Shown piece by piece: positions 8,590 to 59,084 of a DNA stretch of 64,000 nucleotides (positions are counted from its first letter, which is position 1; every line of letters begins with the position of its first letter). This DNA is from Syntrophomonadaceae bacterium. Its GTDB lineage: Bacteria > Bacillota > Syntrophomonadia > Syntrophomonadales > Syntrophomonadaceae. Both the position numbers and the translations under genes were made by a program. The notes beneath the pieces were generated by a model. That model saw only the letters and a program-made list of their open reading frames with translations, had not been told where the DNA came from and ran no database searches. The stretch spans positions 9,204-73,203 of the forward strand of contig JAQUXM010000002.1 of assembly GCA_028692415.1 (NCBI GenBank). The letters are read 5' to 3'.

Positions 8590-9568
8590 TTTCCTCCTCT
8601 ATTATCCGGGAAACCTGAATAGAAAATTTATTGCCAAAGATACCAGGTTTACCAACAAATTTGGTGCGGTTGCCTATAACAACCTCCAATTCCTCATTAA
8701 TATTCTTGTCCAGGGACATCGCATCACCCACGGAAAGAGCCAATAGGTCCTTTACGGTTATTACATTCTTCCCTAGAATTACTTTTACAGGTATTGATGT
8801 ATTTTCCAGCTTGCTTTTTATAGCTGCGATGTTTTCCGGTGATTTTTCCTGGGTTGATGTCGAATAATAATAGTGAACATTCAACTTATCCAGTATAGGT
8901 TCCAAGACCAAAAACGGAATACATATGTTTATCATCCCTACCACTTCAGACATCCGAGCTTCCAGAGAAACAATGATCATTATCTCAGTAGGTGAAACCA
9001 GTTGGGTAAACTGGGGATTGGTCTCCACCCGGTCCAGGGATGGCTCGATCTGAATGATACTCTCCCATGGCTCCTGTAGATAGTCCAGCATGCGCTGCGA
9101 TATTCTTTCCATAACCGTTTGCTCGATTTCAGTCAGAGCTCTGACTTTGGCCAGCGCATAACCCGGACCCCCCAACAAGCGGTCCAAAAAAGCGAAACCC
9201 AGGTTGGGGTTAATCTCCATAATGGCACTGCCCTGTAAAGGATAAAGCGAAAAAATATTCAATATAGTTGGATTAGGGATTGATCTTATAAATTCTTCAT
9301 AGGTTAGCTGTTCCACCGATAACAGTTCTACTTGCACAGGAATACGCAGTTGTCCTGCCAGATAGGTTCCCAGAGTCCGAGAATAATTCTCATAGATGAC
9401 CTGTAAAGTATGTATCTGGTCTTTGGAAAACTTGTTGGGCCGACGAAAATCATAGACTTTGACCTTGTTTTTAATCTCTTCTTCTTTCAGGACATTGGCA
9501 TCAATTGAACCATCGCTTAAGGCGGACAACAAGGCATCTATTTCATTCTGGGACAGAACCTCACTCAT
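8576..9568 (-). CDS. fliM: Flagellar motor switch protein FliM
   Basis: 330 aa with the N-terminal LSQNEIDALL CheY-binding peptide. Sits in the fliL-fliM-fliY order. Confidence 0.9.
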   Translation of the reverse strand: MSEVLSQNEIDALLSALSDGSIDANVLKEEEIKNKVKVYDFRRPNKFSKDQIHTLQVIYENYSRTLGTYLAGQLRIPVQVELLSVEQLTYEEFIRSIPNPTILNIFSLYPLQGSAIMEINPNLGFAFLDRLLGGPGYALAKVRALTEIEQTVMERISQRMLDYLQEPWESIIQIEPSLDRVETNPQFTQLVSPTEIMIIVSLEARMSEVVGMINICIPFLVLEPILDKLNVHYYYSTSTQEKSPENIAAIKSKLENTSIPVKVILGKNVITVKDLLALSVGDAMSLDKNINEELEVVIGNRTKFVGKPGIFGNKFSIQVSRIIEEESDNE

Positions 9569-12880: not shown

Positions 12881-15202
12881 CTAAACCAAAAAATTCATGG
12901 TTCCGTTACTGCCTATGCCATAATCCTGCTCGGATATGGCACTTGCTTCAATTTCATCAATATCAGCATTGCCAAGCCCGGTCTGGTATCCTTGATCCGT
13001 GAAACTAGGCTGGTATTGGCTGCTCATAAACTGCTGCCGCTGCCAGGATTCTTGGGAGTTTTGGCCGGAACCGTCAAACATCCCACCGTTGTTTAGTTGT
13101 ACATTGACTTCGGTCTTTTCCACTCTAATTCCCTGAGCCTCCAGCGTTTGTTTGAGCGTATTCAGGTTGCTGTCCAGCATCTGCTTTACTTGATGGCTGT
13201 CGGTAATAAACCGGGCAGTCACCAATCCTTCTTCGACTGATATCTTGATGGTCATCTTGCCCAAAAATTCAGGCTGCAATTGAATCTTCATCTCTGAAGA
13301 ATTCAGCTTTACCATCATTTCTGCTTTCTTAACAATTTGGTCCAGAACTTGCTCCGGCTCCGCAATCAGGCTGCTGGTTGTCGGTAAAGCTGTACTGCGT
13401 ATTAGCTGGGCTTTATCACTTTCTAAACCAGTTTTGCCTAGTAACAAAAGGCTTGTTTCTCCTTCTGCTTTTTCGCCTTTGACCACTGTTTCAGCTTTTG
13501 CTTGAATACCTTCACCGCTATCAGTCTTTAGCCGTTTGCTTTCGTATTCTATCAGCTTTTTAACATCAGTAGGCGTTTGCTTGTTTTGAGCTTTTTCAAG
13601 CTTCGTTTCCATTCCGGCAACGGCCTTGAATCGTATTTCACTCTGAGTTGGTTTGGATTCGCTTTTCATGCTTTCTGTACTCGCCTGATCGCTTTCGGCA
13701 GTCATATTTGCTTGTTCGGGCACTATGATTGAAGCTGCTTTTTTATCGCCTGAAGTTAGCTTGTTTACCAATACTCCCGCATCAATGACTGTTTCCGCAC
13801 CTAGCACCTTGGTTTTTCTTCCCGGATTATTGGCATCTGTTAGTTTTGCATTCTGCTGGCTGGCTATACCAAGCTGTGTTAGCACCGCCATATTTTGAAC
13901 TGTAGGAGATTCACTTACCGTTACTGCTTCCAGTTCAAGTTCACTGCCGGTTTCCATCTCTGCTTGTTTCTCCGGCTTATCCATACCAGGCTCCATGACC
14001 ACTTCTGTACTAATTGCCTCAGTTTCACTTGCAGGTACTGCTTCCAACCCAAGCGGTTCACTGCCGGCATTCGTCTCGGTTTTAATTTGTGCTTGCTTCT
14101 CCGGCTTATTTATACCAAGTTCCATAACCACTTCTGTACTAATTGCCCCAGCTTCACTTACAGGTACTGCTTCCGGAGCATGCTGTTCACTGCCCGCATT
14201 CGTCTCGGCTTTAATCTGTGCTTGCTTCTCCGGCTTATCCATACCAAGCTCCATGACCACTCCTGCACTAATTGCCCCAGCTTCACTTGCAGGTACTGCT
14301 TCCGGAGCATGCTGTTCACTGCCGGCATTCGTTTCGGCTTTAATCTGTGCTTGCTTCTCCAGCTTATCGACTGCCATTTCGGGTTGAGCCGGAATAATTT
14401 CACTAAGCAATGGCTTTAAATCAATAGCTGAATCTTGAATTGCCAGCGGCAGTTTGATTTCCGGAACTTGTTTTATGGGAGCAGCTTCACCCGTTATAGG
14501 TTCCATATGGTTTGCAGCTGTTTCATCGCTAATGGACCCGATTGTTATTGTTTCCATCACCGGAACCTGCTTTGACAAAACCACTTCCGACAAGCTTAGC
14601 TGTTGCAGTCCGCTTACTTGCTCCTTTGGCATTCCCCCATGGGGTAAAGGATTTTCCTGGAGAGGGATAACTTGAGCAGTATCTTGCGGAAGCTTAATAA
14701 GCAAATCAGCCCCATCAACCTCTAAACTTGCAGATTCACTAAGCTGTGCTGCAGTTTCCGCCGGCAACTCCGGAATTATTTCCTGAGCCATTAATACTGG
14801 AATATCACTTAAGTTCATATTGTTCGATACTTCCTGCGCAGTACTTTCCAGTTTTAATTCTTCGTCAACGGCAAGCTCTTCATCTATTGCTGTTAATTCC
14901 CTTGGCACTGCTTGCCCGGTTTGCTTCCGACTCACTGGAAAGGGTTTTTCAAAAGGATCACTTTCGATTATTTGCTTGGCAGGATAGGAACTAATACTAG
15001 TTTCTGGCCTTTCTACAACTGCTTCTTTGGTGCTGTACGGCAAATCTTTACTCTCGCTACTGTTGCGGGTGAGTTTTTGCAGTTGTTTATTGAAGCTGTT
15101 TAATCCTGCTTTGGCCTTTGGGGAAGACAATCCAGCTTTTTCAGACTTCCTTGACATGACTGGTACGGCTGCCTGCATCTCTACCATTTGCACTTGTGTC
15201 AA
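12881..15202 (-). CDS. fliK: Flagellar hook-length control protein FliK with an internal 43-aa tandem repeat (the track ORF extends to 15235)
   Basis: C-terminal Flg_hook-like domain (MKIQLQPEFLGKMTIKISVEEGLVTARFITDSHQVKQMLD). Located between the ylxF-like gene and flgD. GGAGGTG lies 5 nt before the TTG at 15202. Confidence 0.85.
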   Translation of the reverse strand: MTQVQMVEMQAAVPVMSRKSEKAGLSSPKAKAGLNSFNKQLQKLTRNSSESKDLPYSTKEAVVERPETSISSYPAKQIIESDPFEKPFPVSRKQTGQAVPRELTAIDEELAVDEELKLESTAQEVSNNMNLSDIPVLMAQEIIPELPAETAAQLSESASLEVDGADLLIKLPQDTAQVIPLQENPLPHGGMPKEQVSGLQQLSLSEVVLSKQVPVMETITIGSISDETAANHMEPITGEAAPIKQVPEIKLPLAIQDSAIDLKPLLSEIIPAQPEMAVDKLEKQAQIKAETNAGSEQHAPEAVPASEAGAISAGVVMELGMDKPEKQAQIKAETNAGSEQHAPEAVPVSEAGAISTEVVMELGINKPEKQAQIKTETNAGSEPLGLEAVPASETEAISTEVVMEPGMDKPEKQAEMETGSELELEAVTVSESPTVQNMAVLTQLGIASQQNAKLTDANNPGRKTKVLGAETVIDAGVLVNKLTSGDKKAASIIVPEQANMTAESDQASTESMKSESKPTQSEIRFKAVAGMETKLEKAQNKQTPTDVKKLIEYESKRLKTDSGEGIQAKAETVVKGEKAEGETSLLLLGKTGLESDKAQLIRSTALPTTSSLIAEPEQVLDQIVKKAEMMVKLNSSEMKIQLQPEFLGKMTIKISVEEGLVTARFITDSHQVKQMLDSNLNTLKQTLEAQGIRVEKTEVNVQLNNGGMFDGSGQNSQESWQRQQFMSSQYQPSFTDQGYQTGLGNADIDEIEASAISEQDYGIGSNGTMNFLV
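13915..14372 (-). repeat. 129-bp (43-aa) in-frame tandem repeat inside fliK: three full units plus partial flanking units
   Basis: The unit start ccggcttat recurs at 13972, 14101 and 14230, and as ccagcttat at 14359, exactly 129 bp apart. The protein repeat is ...PEKQAQIKAETNAGSEQHAPEAVPASEAGAIS..VVMELG.DK. Confidence 0.95.
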
Positions 15203-15242
15203 TCTTTCACCTCCTTTTCGATAAAATCCCCTCATCTAAGGG

Positions 15243-15286
15243 GTCAGGAATAAGGGGAGAATACCCCCTCATTCCTGACTCCTCAA
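15243..15286 (-). repeat. SD-like heptad motif plus hairpin, directly after the ylxF-like stop codon
   Basis: Sense strand reads UUGAGGAGUCAGGAAUGAGGGGG, i.e. GAG-N4-CAG-N4-GAG. A 15-bp hairpin spans 15243-15279; its single mismatch is a G.U only on the minus strand. Confidence 0.7.
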
Positions 15287-15895
15287 CTAAGGTACCGCCA
15301 CCAGCATCTTCTTACTGATATTAGCTGCTTTATCCCGATCCATATTTTCCATTAACTCGGCTACCAAATCACTTTCCATAGCGGTAAAGATACCAATAAT
15401 ATCTTCGTCACTTAAACGCGATAATATATCGGCAGCATTTTTGGCTTTCATTTCAGAAAAATAAACAGCCATATCTTTATAAGCGGACGCCTTGCTTTCC
15501 TCTTTAGCCTTCAAATCCAATATTTCTTTGTTTAGCCGGGCTATCTCTTCCTTCAGCATATCATCATCCTGCTCCGTAACCTTTAGATCTTTTTTGGCGT
15601 CAGCAATTGCTGCCTGAGCTTTCTCCATTTCAGCCCTTTTTTCTTCAAGTATTTTCTCCAGTCTTTCATTATCCCGGACATAGCGTTCTTTTTGCTTCAA
15701 TACCTGTTCATACTGAACTACCGATACTTTATCCATGCTTTGTGATATATAGCTGCCTAGAAAGGGTATGCTGTTAAGAAAGGCCGGGGTGGAAAAAACA
15801 TTTAGATACATAAGCAGGTAAGCTCCTCCCCCTAGAATAAAGAGCATTAGAAGCAGATAAAACATGATTTTGATTTTTCGCAAAATCTTGGCCAT
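15287..15895 (-). CDS. YlxF-like flagellar-operon protein (N-terminal TM helix, coiled coil, MgtE-N-like C-terminus)
   Basis: 202 aa, located between fliJ and fliK as ylxF is in B. subtilis. C-terminus reads ADILSRLSDEDIIGIF... Confidence 0.65.
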   Translation of the reverse strand: MAKILRKIKIMFYLLLMLFILGGGAYLLMYLNVFSTPAFLNSIPFLGSYISQSMDKVSVVQYEQVLKQKERYVRDNERLEKILEEKRAEMEKAQAAIADAKKDLKVTEQDDDMLKEEIARLNKEILDLKAKEESKASAYKDMAVYFSEMKAKNAADILSRLSDEDIIGIFTAMESDLVAELMENMDRDKAANISKKMLVAVP

Positions 15896-15990
15896 ATATT
15901 AAAAACTCTCCTGTATGTCAAAGTAAATACGTATTAATTAAGGACTAATTTGCTTGTATTCGCCATGCTCTGGATACCGCGTGAATTTAT

Positions 15991-16027
15991 GGCGGGGGAT
16001 CTACTCCTCACACCCCTACGCCTCACC
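15991..16027 (-). repeat. SD-like heptad motif, 3 nt after the fliJ stop codon
   Basis: Sense strand reads GGUGAGGCGUAGGGGUGUGAGGAGUAG, followed by the C-rich partner AUCCCCCGCC. Confidence 0.7.
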
Positions 16028-16030
16028 ATA

Positions 16031-31836: not shown

Positions 31837-31977
31837 ATGGGAAAACTAGAAACTACCTTGAACAAGGAAGATATCTGGGGAGAAAATGTTTACGAAAATA
31901 TGTGGCTTCCTATTGGGGATGAAAGAGAAAATGATATTCAAAGTCTCTTGCAGCAAAGAAGAATAGGTAAATTCTAG
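31837..31977 (+). CDS. Hypothetical 46-aa protein (MGKLETTLNKEDIWGENVYENMWLPIGDERENDIQSLLQQRRIGKF)
   Basis: Found by manual reading; it is below the track's size cutoff. GAGGAG lies 7 nt upstream of the ATG, 27 nt after the preceding ORF. Followed by a hairpin. Confidence 0.35.
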   Translation: MGKLETTLNKEDIWGENVYENMWLPIGDERENDIQSLLQQRRIGKF

Positions 31978-32019
31978 TGAGGCGTTAGGGGTGAGGTGTA
32001 GAAATTGCACCTTACCTCA
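31978..32019 (+). repeat. SD-like heptad motif plus hairpin, abutting the stop codon of the 46-aa plus-strand ORF
   Basis: Sense (plus) strand reads taGUGAGGCGUUAGGGGUGAGGUGUAGAAAUUGCACCUUACCUC. The hairpin is GUGAGGUG/CACCUUAC, with a T5 run 7 nt downstream. Confidence 0.7.
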
Positions 32020-32101
32020 ACATTTTTAGTTGTTCCATAAGCTATTAGAGGCAGTCATTAATCACCTTGAAAACTCCCATTTGGAACCATTAGACAATAA
32101 T

Positions 32102-33493
32102 CTATTCCGTTTTTAATTCCAGGACCTGCATAGTATTTTCCGCAAATACATCCCATACTTTAACTGCAACTCTATATATTGGGACCTTTGGCACCATAAG
32201 ATTTATATCTACAGCAATCTCTTGATCAAAACCGCTTTTCCTTAAAACCTGTAGATCTGAATTAAAGATAAAACCATTGTAATTAAGATCAATTTCCCAA
32301 AAGTCAATAAATAAGCAGAAATTAGCATTAGGTTTTAATTTGCCAGCATTTTCCGGTGAAGGTTGATAGGAATCAATAGATATGATTAAGTTGGACTCCT
32401 TTTCGTGATCGCCCTCGTTTCGCAATTTGCAAAAAAGCTTGGGCCTATTTATCTTGTGTTGTTCATTTCCATTAAGCTTAAATATTTTAAAGCCTGGGGT
32501 CCTTTTCTGTATTAATCGTTTTAAAGAGATTTGTAATGCCAAGTCACTGCTGTCACAAGCAATCCAATTTCTCTCCATATCTTCACAAACCTCGATGGTT
32601 GTGCCCGAACCAGCATAGAAATCAGCCACCAGACTACCTGGCTGGGAAGCAGTAGCTATTATTCTCCTCAACAGAGCTTCCGGCTTTTGGGTCGGGTATT
32701 TCAAATTCTCTTGAGCGGTAGGGCTAAGAATTTTGTTAATGTCGGCCCACCAATCCTGCATTAGTGCACCTTTCTCATGCAGGCTGTACCTATCTCCTTT
32801 GACTTTGGTTAAACCCCTTTGTATAGTTCCCGCGCTATAAGGCCGGTACTGGGGATTAAAAATATAATTATCACTTCTCGCATACCAGAATATAAGATCA
32901 TGCTTCCTGTGGAAATGCTTTTTGCTTCCGCTTCCACCCCCATAACACCATACTATTTCATTGATAAAATTCTCGCTGGAGAAGATTTCATCCAAGAGCA
33001 ATTTAACATAATGGCTTACATGCCAGTCAAGATGAACAAAAATACTGCCATTGGGGGAAAGAAGATCTTTCATAAGCAGCAAGCGGGGATATAATCCATC
33101 AAGATAGGAATCAAGACTATTTTCCCAGACATCGTCAAAGGCAGAACGGTCCAAGGCCTGTTTGTTTTCACCATTGCCGATGGCGATTCTAGAGATATAT
33201 TCATGATTACTCAAATAGGGTGGGTCTATATAAATAAGATCTATTTTTCCCCGGTAGCCTTGTTGCAATAAGCATTCTATTACAGCTAAATTATCTCCTT
33301 GGAAAAACGCATTTTCTGAGCTATCAGTTCTTGATAAGCTAATATCAATCTGCTCACTAAACAAAGGATTGTTCTGGTACAAGGGGTTAACATATACCCG
33401 TTCAACTTCTTGAAAAGAAGCGAACTTACCCTCTATTTCATTATTTTTACTATCCCAGACAAGTCTCGCACTGTTCCTTGCAATCATATCCAT
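32102..33493 (-). CDS. Orphan beta-class N6-adenine/N4-cytosine DNA methyltransferase with a ~130-aa C-terminal domain of unknown function (the track ORF extends to 33511)
   Basis: Motif IV (LIYIDPPY) precedes motif I (VADFYAGSGTT), and YPTQKPEALLRRII is present, i.e. the beta-class circular permutation (N6_N4_Mtase type). No endonuclease gene is adjacent. Confidence 0.85.
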   Translation of the reverse strand: MDMIARNSARLVWDSKNNEIEGKFASFQEVERVYVNPLYQNNPLFSEQIDISLSRTDSSENAFFQGDNLAVIECLLQQGYRGKIDLIYIDPPYLSNHEYISRIAIGNGENKQALDRSAFDDVWENSLDSYLDGLYPRLLLMKDLLSPNGSIFVHLDWHVSHYVKLLLDEIFSSENFINEIVWCYGGGSGSKKHFHRKHDLIFWYARSDNYIFNPQYRPYSAGTIQRGLTKVKGDRYSLHEKGALMQDWWADINKILSPTAQENLKYPTQKPEALLRRIIATASQPGSLVADFYAGSGTTIEVCEDMERNWIACDSSDLALQISLKRLIQKRTPGFKIFKLNGNEQHKINRPKLFCKLRNEGDHEKESNLIISIDSYQPSPENAGKLKPNANFCLFIDFWEIDLNYNGFIFNSDLQVLRKSGFDQEIAVDINLMVPKVPIYRVAVKVWDVFAENTMQVLELKTE

Positions 33494-33602
33494 CCTGCTC
33501 CTTTTTGCCAAAACCTAAAAGCAGAAAGTGACGTTTTAACATTAACCATATGGCTCTACGCCCATACGGCAAAAGCTACTTCTGTGAAAAACTGCGCCAG
33601 GC

Positions 33603-33645
33603 AGGTGAAAATTCGCACCTTACCCCTCAGTCCTCACTCCTCACC
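33603..33645 (-). repeat. SD-like heptad motif plus hairpin, 36 nt after the 45-aa ORF stop codon and upstream of the methyltransferase
   Basis: Sense strand reads GGUGAGGAGUGAGGACUGAGGGGUAAGGUGCGAAUUUUCACCU. By hand alignment, ~26 of 34 positions match the reverse complement of 31979-32020. Confidence 0.7.
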
Positions 33646-45598: not shown

Positions 45599-45619
45599 TA
45601 CTGATTGCCTCCTTTTTGT

Positions 45620-45680
45620 AAGGAGTAAGGGGTGAAGGGTAAGAAGTTCTACCCCTTGCTCCTCACCCCTCACGCCTCAC
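45620..45680 (-). repeat. SD-like heptad motif plus complementary C-rich arm, 8 nt after the ftsW stop codon
   Basis: Sense strand reads GUGAGGCGUGAGGGGUGAGGAG, then CAAGGGGUAGAACUUCUUACCCUUCACCCCUUACUCC. Two alternative 10-12-bp pairings are possible. Confidence 0.7.
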
Positions 45681-45688
45681 AATTCTGA

Positions 45689-56604: not shown

Positions 56605-56637
56605 CACCCATTCCTCACTTATCACCTTATCTTCACT
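56605..56637 (-). repeat. Degenerate purine-triplet heptad tract directly after the ACT-gene stop codon
   Basis: Sense strand reads AGUGAAGAUAAGGUGAUAAGUGAGGAAUGGGUG. It keeps the 7-nt RRG periodicity but matches the family consensus weakly. Confidence 0.35.
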
Positions 56638-58822: not shown

Positions 58823-58875
58823 AAAAAACCCCACCGAGCCGTGATGCCGTAGTTTCAACCTGCAAAGCAGGTGGG
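58823..58875 (-). terminator. Possible terminator downstream of aspS
   Basis: Minus strand has CCCACC...GGUGGG followed by G and UUUUUU. The stem encloses ~34 nt, including an inner hairpin ACCUGC-UUU-GCAGGU, so this is atypical. Confidence 0.35.
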
Positions 58876-59084
58876 TACCCTCCCACATATTTTGATGTGT
58901 CCCAAATACCGGGCATGCACGCTATATGTGGAGATAAGTTCCCTAAATTTTTGTGTTGGCAAAAACTTAACAGCCATTCACGTACACAGCAGGGATTTCC
59001 TTTTCTCAGGTAAAATACTACCATATAATAGTCATTTCTTCAAGCTAAACAAGGTGCCATTATAGACCATTTTCTCCAATATTT

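Follow-up and report, generated by a model that had tools for sequence, protein, structure and literature searches.

Heptamer repeats are among the commonest unexplained features of bacterial intergenic DNA. The short tandemly repeated repetitive (STRR) heptamers of heterocystous cyanobacteria are dispersed, intergenic tandem heptamers whose classical units have other sequences than the one reported here. Tandem arrays of the purine-rich heptanucleotide GTDAGGN (D is G, A, or T) were analyzed in a 64,000-nucleotide stretch of a Syntrophomonadaceae genome (hereafter the window; positions 9,204 to 73,203 of contig JAQUXM010000002.1, assembly GCA_028692415.1), across the whole genome, and in other genomes. 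A first-pass annotation, made from the letters of the window, had gathered six such stretches into one family of Shine-Dalgarno (SD)-like motifs lying just 3' of stop codons. The family is the local form of the bacterial intergenic heptamer repeats, and the window sites are probably copies of dispersed, evolutionarily labile, heterogeneous heptanucleotide arrays, a DNA-level repeat that is selfish or a mutational by-product, and not a ribosome-binding device.

Rehm et al. 2015 (PMC4692102) describe heterogeneous heptads of the forms GGGAATC/GGGANTN in Xanthomonas and GGGGA(C/T)T in Nostoc, with a preference for four units. In that account the repeats are 89 to 93% intergenic, the ORF neighboring their 5' side lies about 28 nt away in any orientation, 70 to 75 convergent pairs occur per genome, few copies lie between divergent genes, and function is left open. 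The arrays reported here agree with this description in being tandem heptads with fixed and free positions, in numbering about 100 to 190 per genome with about 90% intergenic, and in having four units as their commonest size (65 of 110 arrays here). They agree also in that the 5' end of the G-rich strand (G strand) lies near an ORF of any orientation, in their many convergent inverted pairs, and in that sites are common to related species while unit number and sequence vary. They differ in the unit itself, with GG in place of GGG tracts and no predicted quadruplex; in a stop-side, sense-strand bias of about 2:1 to 4:1, compared to about 1:1 in Xanthomonas; in a spore-forming Bacillota host; and in the presence of a stop codon on the G strand of almost every unit.

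A second report, MacGregor 2015 (PMC4679880), describes TAACTGA direct repeats of 2 to 6 units at gene boundaries in marine Beggiatoaceae, cyanobacteria, and Bacteroidetes, with patchy cross-phylum spread and no evident transfer mechanism, and proposes but does not show a translational role. In contrast to the arrays here, the TAACTGA repeats as described there stand mostly just upstream of starts, on the sense strand, and one inverted pair is reported. Regulation by other heptamers is put forward as speculation in a Nostoc preprint. The anatomy of the arrays is that of the already known Rehm-type repeats, and the window adds a further example to an existing puzzle without constituting a novel system. 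What sets this member apart is its unit sequence, the lack of a predicted quadruplex, the marked stop-side sense-strand bias, and clear evidence that the arrays, together with the DNA behind them, are insertions into tight operon junctions. The member comes from Bacillota, and its unit recurs in numerous other phyla.

Heptad arrays at the edges of coding sequences

A search of the window with the pattern of the first-pass annotation, allowing up to 3 mismatches, returned 8 matches, compared to 0.36 expected, and none of 100 shuffles reached 8. These matches grouped into 4 loci (15267, 31979, 33618/33625, and 45620-45685). The source genome is a 2.997-Mb draft of a spore-forming Bacillota member (245 contigs, 92% complete), over which an unbiased regular expression gave 129 matches, 110 of them clear arrays of GT[G/A/T]AGGN; the motif is thus much more frequent than chance would allow. 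By lenient count, 35 arrays contained three units, 65 four, 8 five, 1 six, and 1 seven. Strict runs of 2, 3, 4, 5, 6, and 7 units numbered 58, 36, 36, 5, 1, and 1, respectively, whereas the reversed unit, taken as a control, never ran beyond 2 units (5 such runs). Unit positions G1, T2, A4, G5, and G6 were near-invariant, positions 3 and 7 varied, and the last full unit was followed by a variant unit, G[T/A]A[G/A]AA, that closed the array. The upstream flanks were A/T-rich and had no fixed motif. The arrays were dispersed over many contigs, and 103 of the 110 were intergenic.

Gene positions in the source genome were taken from a crude custom caller based on ORFs and codon usage (2640 calls). 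Of the 103 intergenic arrays, 70 followed a same-strand gene, and 55 of these 70 began no more than 18 nt past the stop, mostly at 2 to 11 nt; another 31 lay antisense beside a gene start, 21 of them within 40 nt of it. About two thirds of arrays are sense, 2 to 11 nt past a stop, and the rest are antisense just upstream of the next SD. A second count by an ORF-only method placed the 5' side of the G strand at a coding-sequence boundary in 74 of 105 arrays versus 8 of 104 in the mirrored arrangement (P = 4e-22), showing that such boundaries adjoin the G strand at its 5' end and not at its 3' end.

Given this edge geometry, the rule that the G-rich strand always matches the sense of the upstream gene, as the first-pass annotation had it, is partly automatic, and the 31 antisense copies, which the annotation had not recorded, contradict its "always." The stop-side, sense-strand bias within the rule is nevertheless real. 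Among co-directional spacers, the array stood solely after the stop in 41 and solely before the start in 9 (41:9, P = 6e-6); 10 had arrays at both edges, and 11 had an array at neither edge. Of 86 array-bearing spacers, 4 were divergent, compared to a background of 18.6% by bases (P = 3e-4) or 8.8% by count (P = 0.25), and in none of these 4 was an array at the edge.

Inverted-pair geometry, also absent from the annotation, was frequent. Convergent pairs of arrays numbered 20 at gaps below 3 kb, 17 of them at 100 to 530 nt, and a single divergent pair was found below 1 kb. The convergent pairs enclose entire spacers: the stop is followed by the G array, then the interior, the C array (the complementary, C-rich orientation), the SD, and the start, and the hairpin between ftsW and murG in the window is a pair of this kind with no interior. 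Occupation of both edges thus yields a convergent inverted pair, and with nothing in between, a hairpin. Long co-directional spacers with a post-stop array had a C array at the far edge in 11 of 41 cases, with predicted duplexes of -26 to -41 kcal/mol, and no hidden C-rich partner was found for the solitary post-stop arrays of the other 30 spacers (median rank, 0.64). A local complement at a score of at least 14 was detected for 28 of 106 arrays, compared to 2 upstream flanks and 6 random windows. Solitary arrays outnumber pairs, and single arrays are nearly structure-free, with a mean minimum free energy (MFE) of -1.9 kcal/mol. A terminator-like site followed 5 of 57 post-stop arrays versus 262 of 925 control gene ends (P = 6e-4), from which it follows that these arrays lie mostly inside operons.

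When the interiors of pairs were searched as a possible shared element body, 14 of 17 had no non-self match, and the rest held other dispersed repeats; the downstream (distal) flanks likewise had no non-self match in 83 of 108 cases, the remainder holding other dispersed repeats. At least three such other families were seen, often within array-bounded spacers (C88, C214, C11, C133, C50, C52, C154, and others; also in the congener G001). One has more than 100 BLAST matches in the source genome and dozens in G001, a second has about 160 to 180, and a third is a long palindrome of the GGGACA type.

Junction histories and occurrence in other genomes

The three-unit pattern was found in 8 of the 31 genomes of the order that were compared as relatives. 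Overlapping matches numbered 132 in the source genome (G000; other G numbers denote relatives), 103 in G002, 315 in G005, 57 in G009, 65 in G014, 52 in G027, 3 in G003, and 1 in G030, and the same pattern read backwards, as a control, gave 0 to 3 matches per genome. The congener G001 (84% complete) had no strict match but carried degenerate arrays at three orthologous sites.

Junctions were compared at about 13 sites, with outgroup polarization at two of these. In G014 and G005, ftsW and murG meet at a tight junction of about 10 nt; G001 has a 2.5-unit hairpin there, the source genome a 4-unit hairpin, and G002 the same arrays separated by about 240 nt. The fliJ-flbB junction spans 14 nt in G001 and at most 17 nt in the outgroup G005, and it contains an array plus about 100 nt in both the source genome and G002. 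Two further junctions of 13 and 7 nt in G002 correspond to 241 and 203 nt, with arrays, in the source genome. At one spacer, both edge arrays are common to the source genome and G002 around unrelated interiors; at another, each edge carries an array in the source genome, and the terminator enclosed by the two is also present in G002. Congeners and outgroups have tight stop-SD-start junctions at several of these places, so the arrays there are derived and were inserted between the stop and the nearby SD of genes transcribed together. Distal to the inserted arrays lies unique, unrelated DNA. No target-site duplication was evident at the aligned junctions, where the alignments around insertions are ambiguous. 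Clean filled and empty junctions within one genus are thereby available, in which arrays reach the stop-SD gap of an operon together with new spacer DNA.

Species genomes in general were searched for arrays of four units, which yielded at least 123 stretches. Among the matches listed, the GTDAGGN unit was present in many phyla, in records from Nostoc, Calothrix, Rivularia, Nitrospira, Acidobacteriota, and Pirellulales, as well as Bacteroidales, Betaproteobacteria, Desulfobacterota, and Syntrophomonadaceae; the arrays of at least four units in the Nostoc, Calothrix, and Rivularia records are a point of likeness to STRR heptamers. A long same-strand ORF ended at -12 to +40 nt for 67 of 125 of the listed arrays versus 20 of 125 mirrored, stop-side and start-side copies were about equal, and no recurrent protein family was found beside the arrays (largest cluster, 4 of 202).

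These distributions bear on a possible origin in mobile DNA. Miniature inverted-repeat transposable elements (MITEs), for example, those of the Correia/NEMIS type, have terminal inverted repeats around a short noncoding stretch and form long hairpins when transcribed. The paired arrays resemble them in flanking short noncoding DNA as terminal inverted repeats, in having filled and empty sites among relatives, and in the long hairpins expected upon transcription. Arrays could in that case be the ends of nonautonomous elements (MITE-like or mobile insertion cassette [MIC]-like), serving as multi-site terminal inverted repeats for an unidentified transposase, with solitary arrays as one-ended remnants. 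The convergent pairs flush with flanking genes, the filled or empty sites among congeners with patchy occurrence among relatives, and a unit present in many phyla, which fits horizontal spread, are all consistent with such an origin. It is nonetheless improbable, in that the interiors are unique and share no conserved body, the junctions examined showed no target-site duplication, a preexisting spacer received an array at each edge independently, no partner transposase or recurrent neighbor family was found, and most arrays are solitary. No known mobile element ends in this motif, an identity that the first-pass annotation had named as one that would count against its stop-codon rule.

Similar considerations apply to repetitive extragenic palindromic (REP) sequences and bacterial interspersed mosaic elements (BIMEs). 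The arrays are like these in being extragenic, often just past stops, in folding as mRNA hairpins when inverted pairs are formed, and in a GTAG-like motif within the closing GTAGAA unit. They differ in that a single array is no palindrome, copies are not full-length homologues, and no gene for a Y1 transposase or REP-associated tyrosine transposase (RAYT) was found in the source genome. An imperfect palindrome preceded by GTAG, as in a REP unit, was not what the arrays presented (mean MFE and local complements as given above). A search for the Y1 transposase (PF01797) gave no match in the 92% complete source genome; the family was present in 22 of 31 relatives, many of them without arrays, and did not track the arrays. 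Two other candidate causes were tried and rejected: loss of mismatch repair, as MutS was present in all 31 relatives and above the family cutoff in 29, and a link to nonhomologous end joining, as a search for Ku gave nothing in G005, the relative richest in arrays, or in G009.

There is a slim chance that the arrays are the footprint of a DNA-level process operating across phyla, which would plant polar heptads at coding-sequence edges, with both G strands pointing into the spacer and accretion of distal DNA following. If so, the geometry would be that of two capped ends placed head to head, spacers would be born inside formerly tight operon junctions, and heptamer repeats would drive spacer growth and operon loosening and not be passive microsatellites. 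Should the polarity rule reflect a real mechanism, it would bear on the origin of intergenic regions and on the evolution of operon junctions.

Ribosome pairing, RNA folding, and HutP

Pairing to the anti-SD was computed with a short anti-SD motif as the target; the 16S gene is absent from the source assembly, where its 3' end was sought and not found. Median energies were -9.5 kcal/mol for arrays, -8.3 for true SD regions, -3.6 for random 28-mers, and -10.9 for mononucleotide-shuffled arrays, and 75% of shuffles reached the array median. The arrays can therefore pair with the anti-SD, as the first-pass annotation supposed. Since shuffled arrays pair at least as well, the SD-likeness stems from purine-rich composition and not from heptad order, and by this target no complementarity to the 16S tail beyond composition, as expected of an SD or standby site, was found. 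The unit also occurs in phyla that make little use of SD sequences.

An RNA-level element at cistron junctions would nevertheless be one way to read the arrays: the purine tract might hold or reroute terminating ribosomes (as a multi-SD, standby, or re-initiation site), or a stem with the C array might join the stop to the next SD or block exonucleases. Such a reading is favored by the 41:9 stop-side sense bias, the location of arrays inside operons, anti-SD pairing as good as that of true SD regions, the partnered spacers (11 of 41, with the stem energies given above), and the three of six window sites that fold far better than shuffles. In Escherichia coli, REP hairpins at most about 15 nt from a stop are reported to affect translation. 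We regard this reading as unlikely, given the performance of the shuffled arrays, the 30 of 41 spacers without a partner or a hidden one, and sense and antisense folds that are equally good (12 versus 11). Furthermore, arrays are missing from 23 of 31 relatives although these have the same operons, tight junctions work without them, and start-side antisense copies are as common as stop-side copies in other phyla among the matches listed.

Two narrower proposals were rejected. Stop codons (TGA, TAA, or TAG) are contained in 96% of units, but only 48 of 110 arrays cover three frames, as a three-frame stop cassette would; when position-3 letters were shuffled, the mean was 58, and 998 of 1,000 shuffles equaled or exceeded the observed 48. 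Selection on the RNA sense through G:U pairs was suggested by the better folding of the G strand than of its complement nearly everywhere, an asymmetry that arises from how the arrays were ascertained, and the sense-to-antisense ratio was 12:11.

A regulatory role through G-quadruplexes has been proposed for GGGAATC and GGGGAYT repeats, but it is a highly improbable explanation here. The predominance of four units with a sharp drop thereafter parallels the published four-unit preference, and about 45% of units create GGGG runs (G at position 7 in 187 of 418). However, the majority of tracts consist of just GG, with loops of 5 nt, and G-quadruplex-aware ViennaRNA placed a quadruplex in the MFE structure of 2 of 110 arrays versus 34% of shuffles, a result that is an energy-model prediction only.

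The HutP site in the hut leader of Bacillus subtilis consists of clusters of three NAG triplets spaced with a 7-nt period, and the first-pass annotation had pointed to this spacing. The arrays do contain such triplets, with D-A-G recurring every 7 nt in three or four units and numbers falling sharply beyond 4, and the source genome encodes a HutP-family protein (160 bits). Arrays might on these grounds be sites for an order-wide HutP-family hexamer that reads NAG-N4-NAG-N4-NAG on one face and controls a posttranscriptional regulon at gene junctions. We give this little credence. All 31 of 31 relatives have the HutP family, yet only 8 of 31 have arrays, and the phyletic spread of the arrays, which extends to cyanobacteria, Nitrospira, Acidobacteriota, and other groups in which HutP would not be expected to act, does not follow that of HutP. 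Moreover, the arrays do not lie in a terminator/antiterminator leader, no second, paired cluster is present on the same strand, one third of copies are antisense, and a terminator whose formation binding could prevent is rare (after 5 of 57 post-stop arrays).

The HutP-family gene itself (G000:C113:42517-42900; L249 1462-1896) is an orphan here, although all 31 of 31 genomes of the order have the gene, and among 14 control genomes the family matched in Bacillus subtilis only. Directly after it stands an ORF for an AroH-like chorismate mutase (named from its sequence, not by family search), and not hut genes. A homologue of the trp RNA-binding attenuation protein (TRAP, TrpBP; 137 bits) was also seen at G000:C119:1530-1727, with a 4-unit array (C119:1246-1270) about 260 nt upstream.

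Optimized SD sites, quadruplexes, REP/RAYT, mismatch-repair loss, and co-occurrence with Ku and HutP, several of the easy explanations, are thereby ruled out. Under the preferred reading of a dispersed DNA-level repeat, polar insertion or growth would plant arrays at gene edges, as a selfish repeat or a mutational by-product, and purifying selection on the stop codon and SD would set their final position. A solitary copy would then present a nearly structure-free purine tract on the polycistronic mRNA just past the stop. A paired copy would form a 25- to 33-bp intercistronic stem and might, like REP elements, hinder mRNA decay or provide a site for processing, such effects of RNA structure being presumably incidental or secondary. 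The role of 3'-end or processing stabilizer raised by the first-pass annotation is possible for paired or hairpin copies, with 30 of 41 spacers lacking a partner.

Several observations weigh against a purely DNA-level repeat. A DNA process that treats both strands alike would not be expected to yield the 41:9 stop-side excess, which hints at a constraint or function linked to transcription or translation. The same five unit positions (G1, T2, A4, G5, and G6) are kept in the source genome and G002 while positions 3 and 7 vary, and one 66-nt hairpin is about 92% identical between these genomes, compared to 79 to 83% for the flanking genes; such conservation suggests constraint or homogenization. 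Also constraint-like are the recurrence of the unit across phyla, the drop in strict runs from 36 to 5 after four units, and the low frequency of C at position 3 (16 of 418).

The six sites of the window and their surroundings

The host is a flagellated, spore-forming Bacillota member, with genes including sigG, dprA, and mraZ nearby in the window. The gene names FtsW/SpoVE, MurG, FliJ, and ACT-domain protein were backed by NCBIfam, with FliJ and ACT below the curated cutoffs, and the gene called ylxF-like in the first-pass annotation matched FlbB, also below the cutoff. The six stretches and their gaps after the stop (8, 3, 0, 0, 36, and 0 nt, in the order ftsW, fliJ, ylxF-like, 31978, 33645, and ACT) read as had been quoted; their coordinates are collected in Table 1. 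Five belong to one family: those at ftsW, 31978, and 33611-33645 are regular arrays, and the decayed fliJ and degenerate ylxF-like copies were confirmed as members by their orthologues. Membership of the ACT site is doubtful, as it was matched by neither the window pattern search nor the genome-wide array search. The sequestering segment attributed to every site was found at three of the six, those with significant folds in Table 1, and the other three did not fold better than shuffles.

Table 1. Heptad sites and other features of the 64,000-nt window
Feature	Position	Strand	Content	Fold or other property
ftsW-murG hairpin	45618..45682	-	regular array	MFE -41 kcal/mol; z -6.2 versus shuffles
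Hairpin after FlbB-like (ylxF-like) stop	15232..15290	-	degenerate heptads	MFE -35.6; z -5.2
Decayed post-stop array, 3 nt past fliJ stop	16001..16027	-	GTGAGGC GTAGGG GTGTGAGGA GTAG	z +0.4, not significant
Whole fliJ-flbB spacer, 135 nt	15896..16030	-	array plus about 100 nt of unique DNA	
Post-stop array after small ORF	31977..32026	+	GTGAGGC GTTAGGG GTGAGGT GTAGAA	z -4.7; closes into short hairpin
Array past hypothetical 45-aa ORF	33603..33644	-	regular array, GTGAGGA GTGAGGA CTGAGGG GTAAGGT	z -1.3, not significant
Purine-rich stretch after ACT-domain gene	56605..56637	-	out of heptad register	z -0.5
Small ORF, antisense to neighbors	31837-31977	+		without family match
Adenine-specific DNA methyltransferase gene	32102-33511	-		without restriction partner in view
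6S (SsrS) RNA gene	58824-58998	-	Rfam RF00013	90.9 bits
ORF of about 780 aa	12881-15235	-		without NCBIfam match
129-bp tandem repeat	13956-14368		3.2 copies, 89% matches	inside the ORF of about 780 aa

The G arm of the ftsW-murG hairpin has 4 units (GTGAGGC GTGAGGG GTGAGGA GCAAGGG; 45680-45653) followed by a GTAGAA unit, a small loop, and the C arm (about 45645-45618). The hairpin begins 8 nt past the ftsW stop (45691-45689) and ends 7 nt short of the murG SD. It did not resemble an intrinsic terminator (a GC-rich hairpin with a U run), the sequence 3' of it being AAAAAGGAGG.

Near the flagellar genes, the degenerate hairpin lies directly 3' of the FlbB-like stop and just 5' of the SD of the next gene, and it is kept at the same place in G001 and G002, so that three congeners, including the source genome, have it. 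The orthologue of the decayed fliJ array in G002 is a regular 3-unit array. The plus-strand array shares 1 nt with the TAG of its small ORF, and G002 has a degenerate orthologous array. Differences between that ORF and its G002 orthologue are mostly synonymous, and it is therefore probably a real gene. The array past the 45-aa ORF is accompanied by a small AGGTG/CACCT hairpin; at this site (33611), G002 has 2 units flush with conserved flanks, and the source genome has 2 more units and about 85 nt distally.

The public runs found to contain this DNA are all metagenomic DNA, and none is RNA. Contigs from four public metagenomic runs (three studies) were used as a population check. The arrays at 31978 and 33611 were bridged without gaps by contigs of three of the four runs (two studies), and the array at 16001 was bridged by contigs of two runs of one study. 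Arrays are stable within the species: no variation in unit number was seen at these three arrays among the four runs, as judged from contigs, which drop rare variants. The ylxF-like hairpin showed a 1-nt indel at 15258 in 3 of the 4 runs. Assemblies also tend to break at arrays. Public-run contigs stop beside the ylxF-like hairpin, and in the source assembly runs of N interrupt arrays at G000:C91:5803-6057 and C99:5938-6118, one of these interrupted arrays being a perfect (GTAAGGC)n.

Bracketing of mobile cargo by the arrays at 31978 and 33645, with the adenine methyltransferase gene as that cargo, was considered and rejected, since the gene is syntenic between sigG and dprA in G002, G005, and G014 and is therefore not cargo. 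An Rfam scan of the window, with gathering scores as thresholds, gave no match at the array sites; the sole match was the 6S RNA gene. The ORF of about 780 aa that contains the tandem repeat lies just downstream of the flagellar genes.

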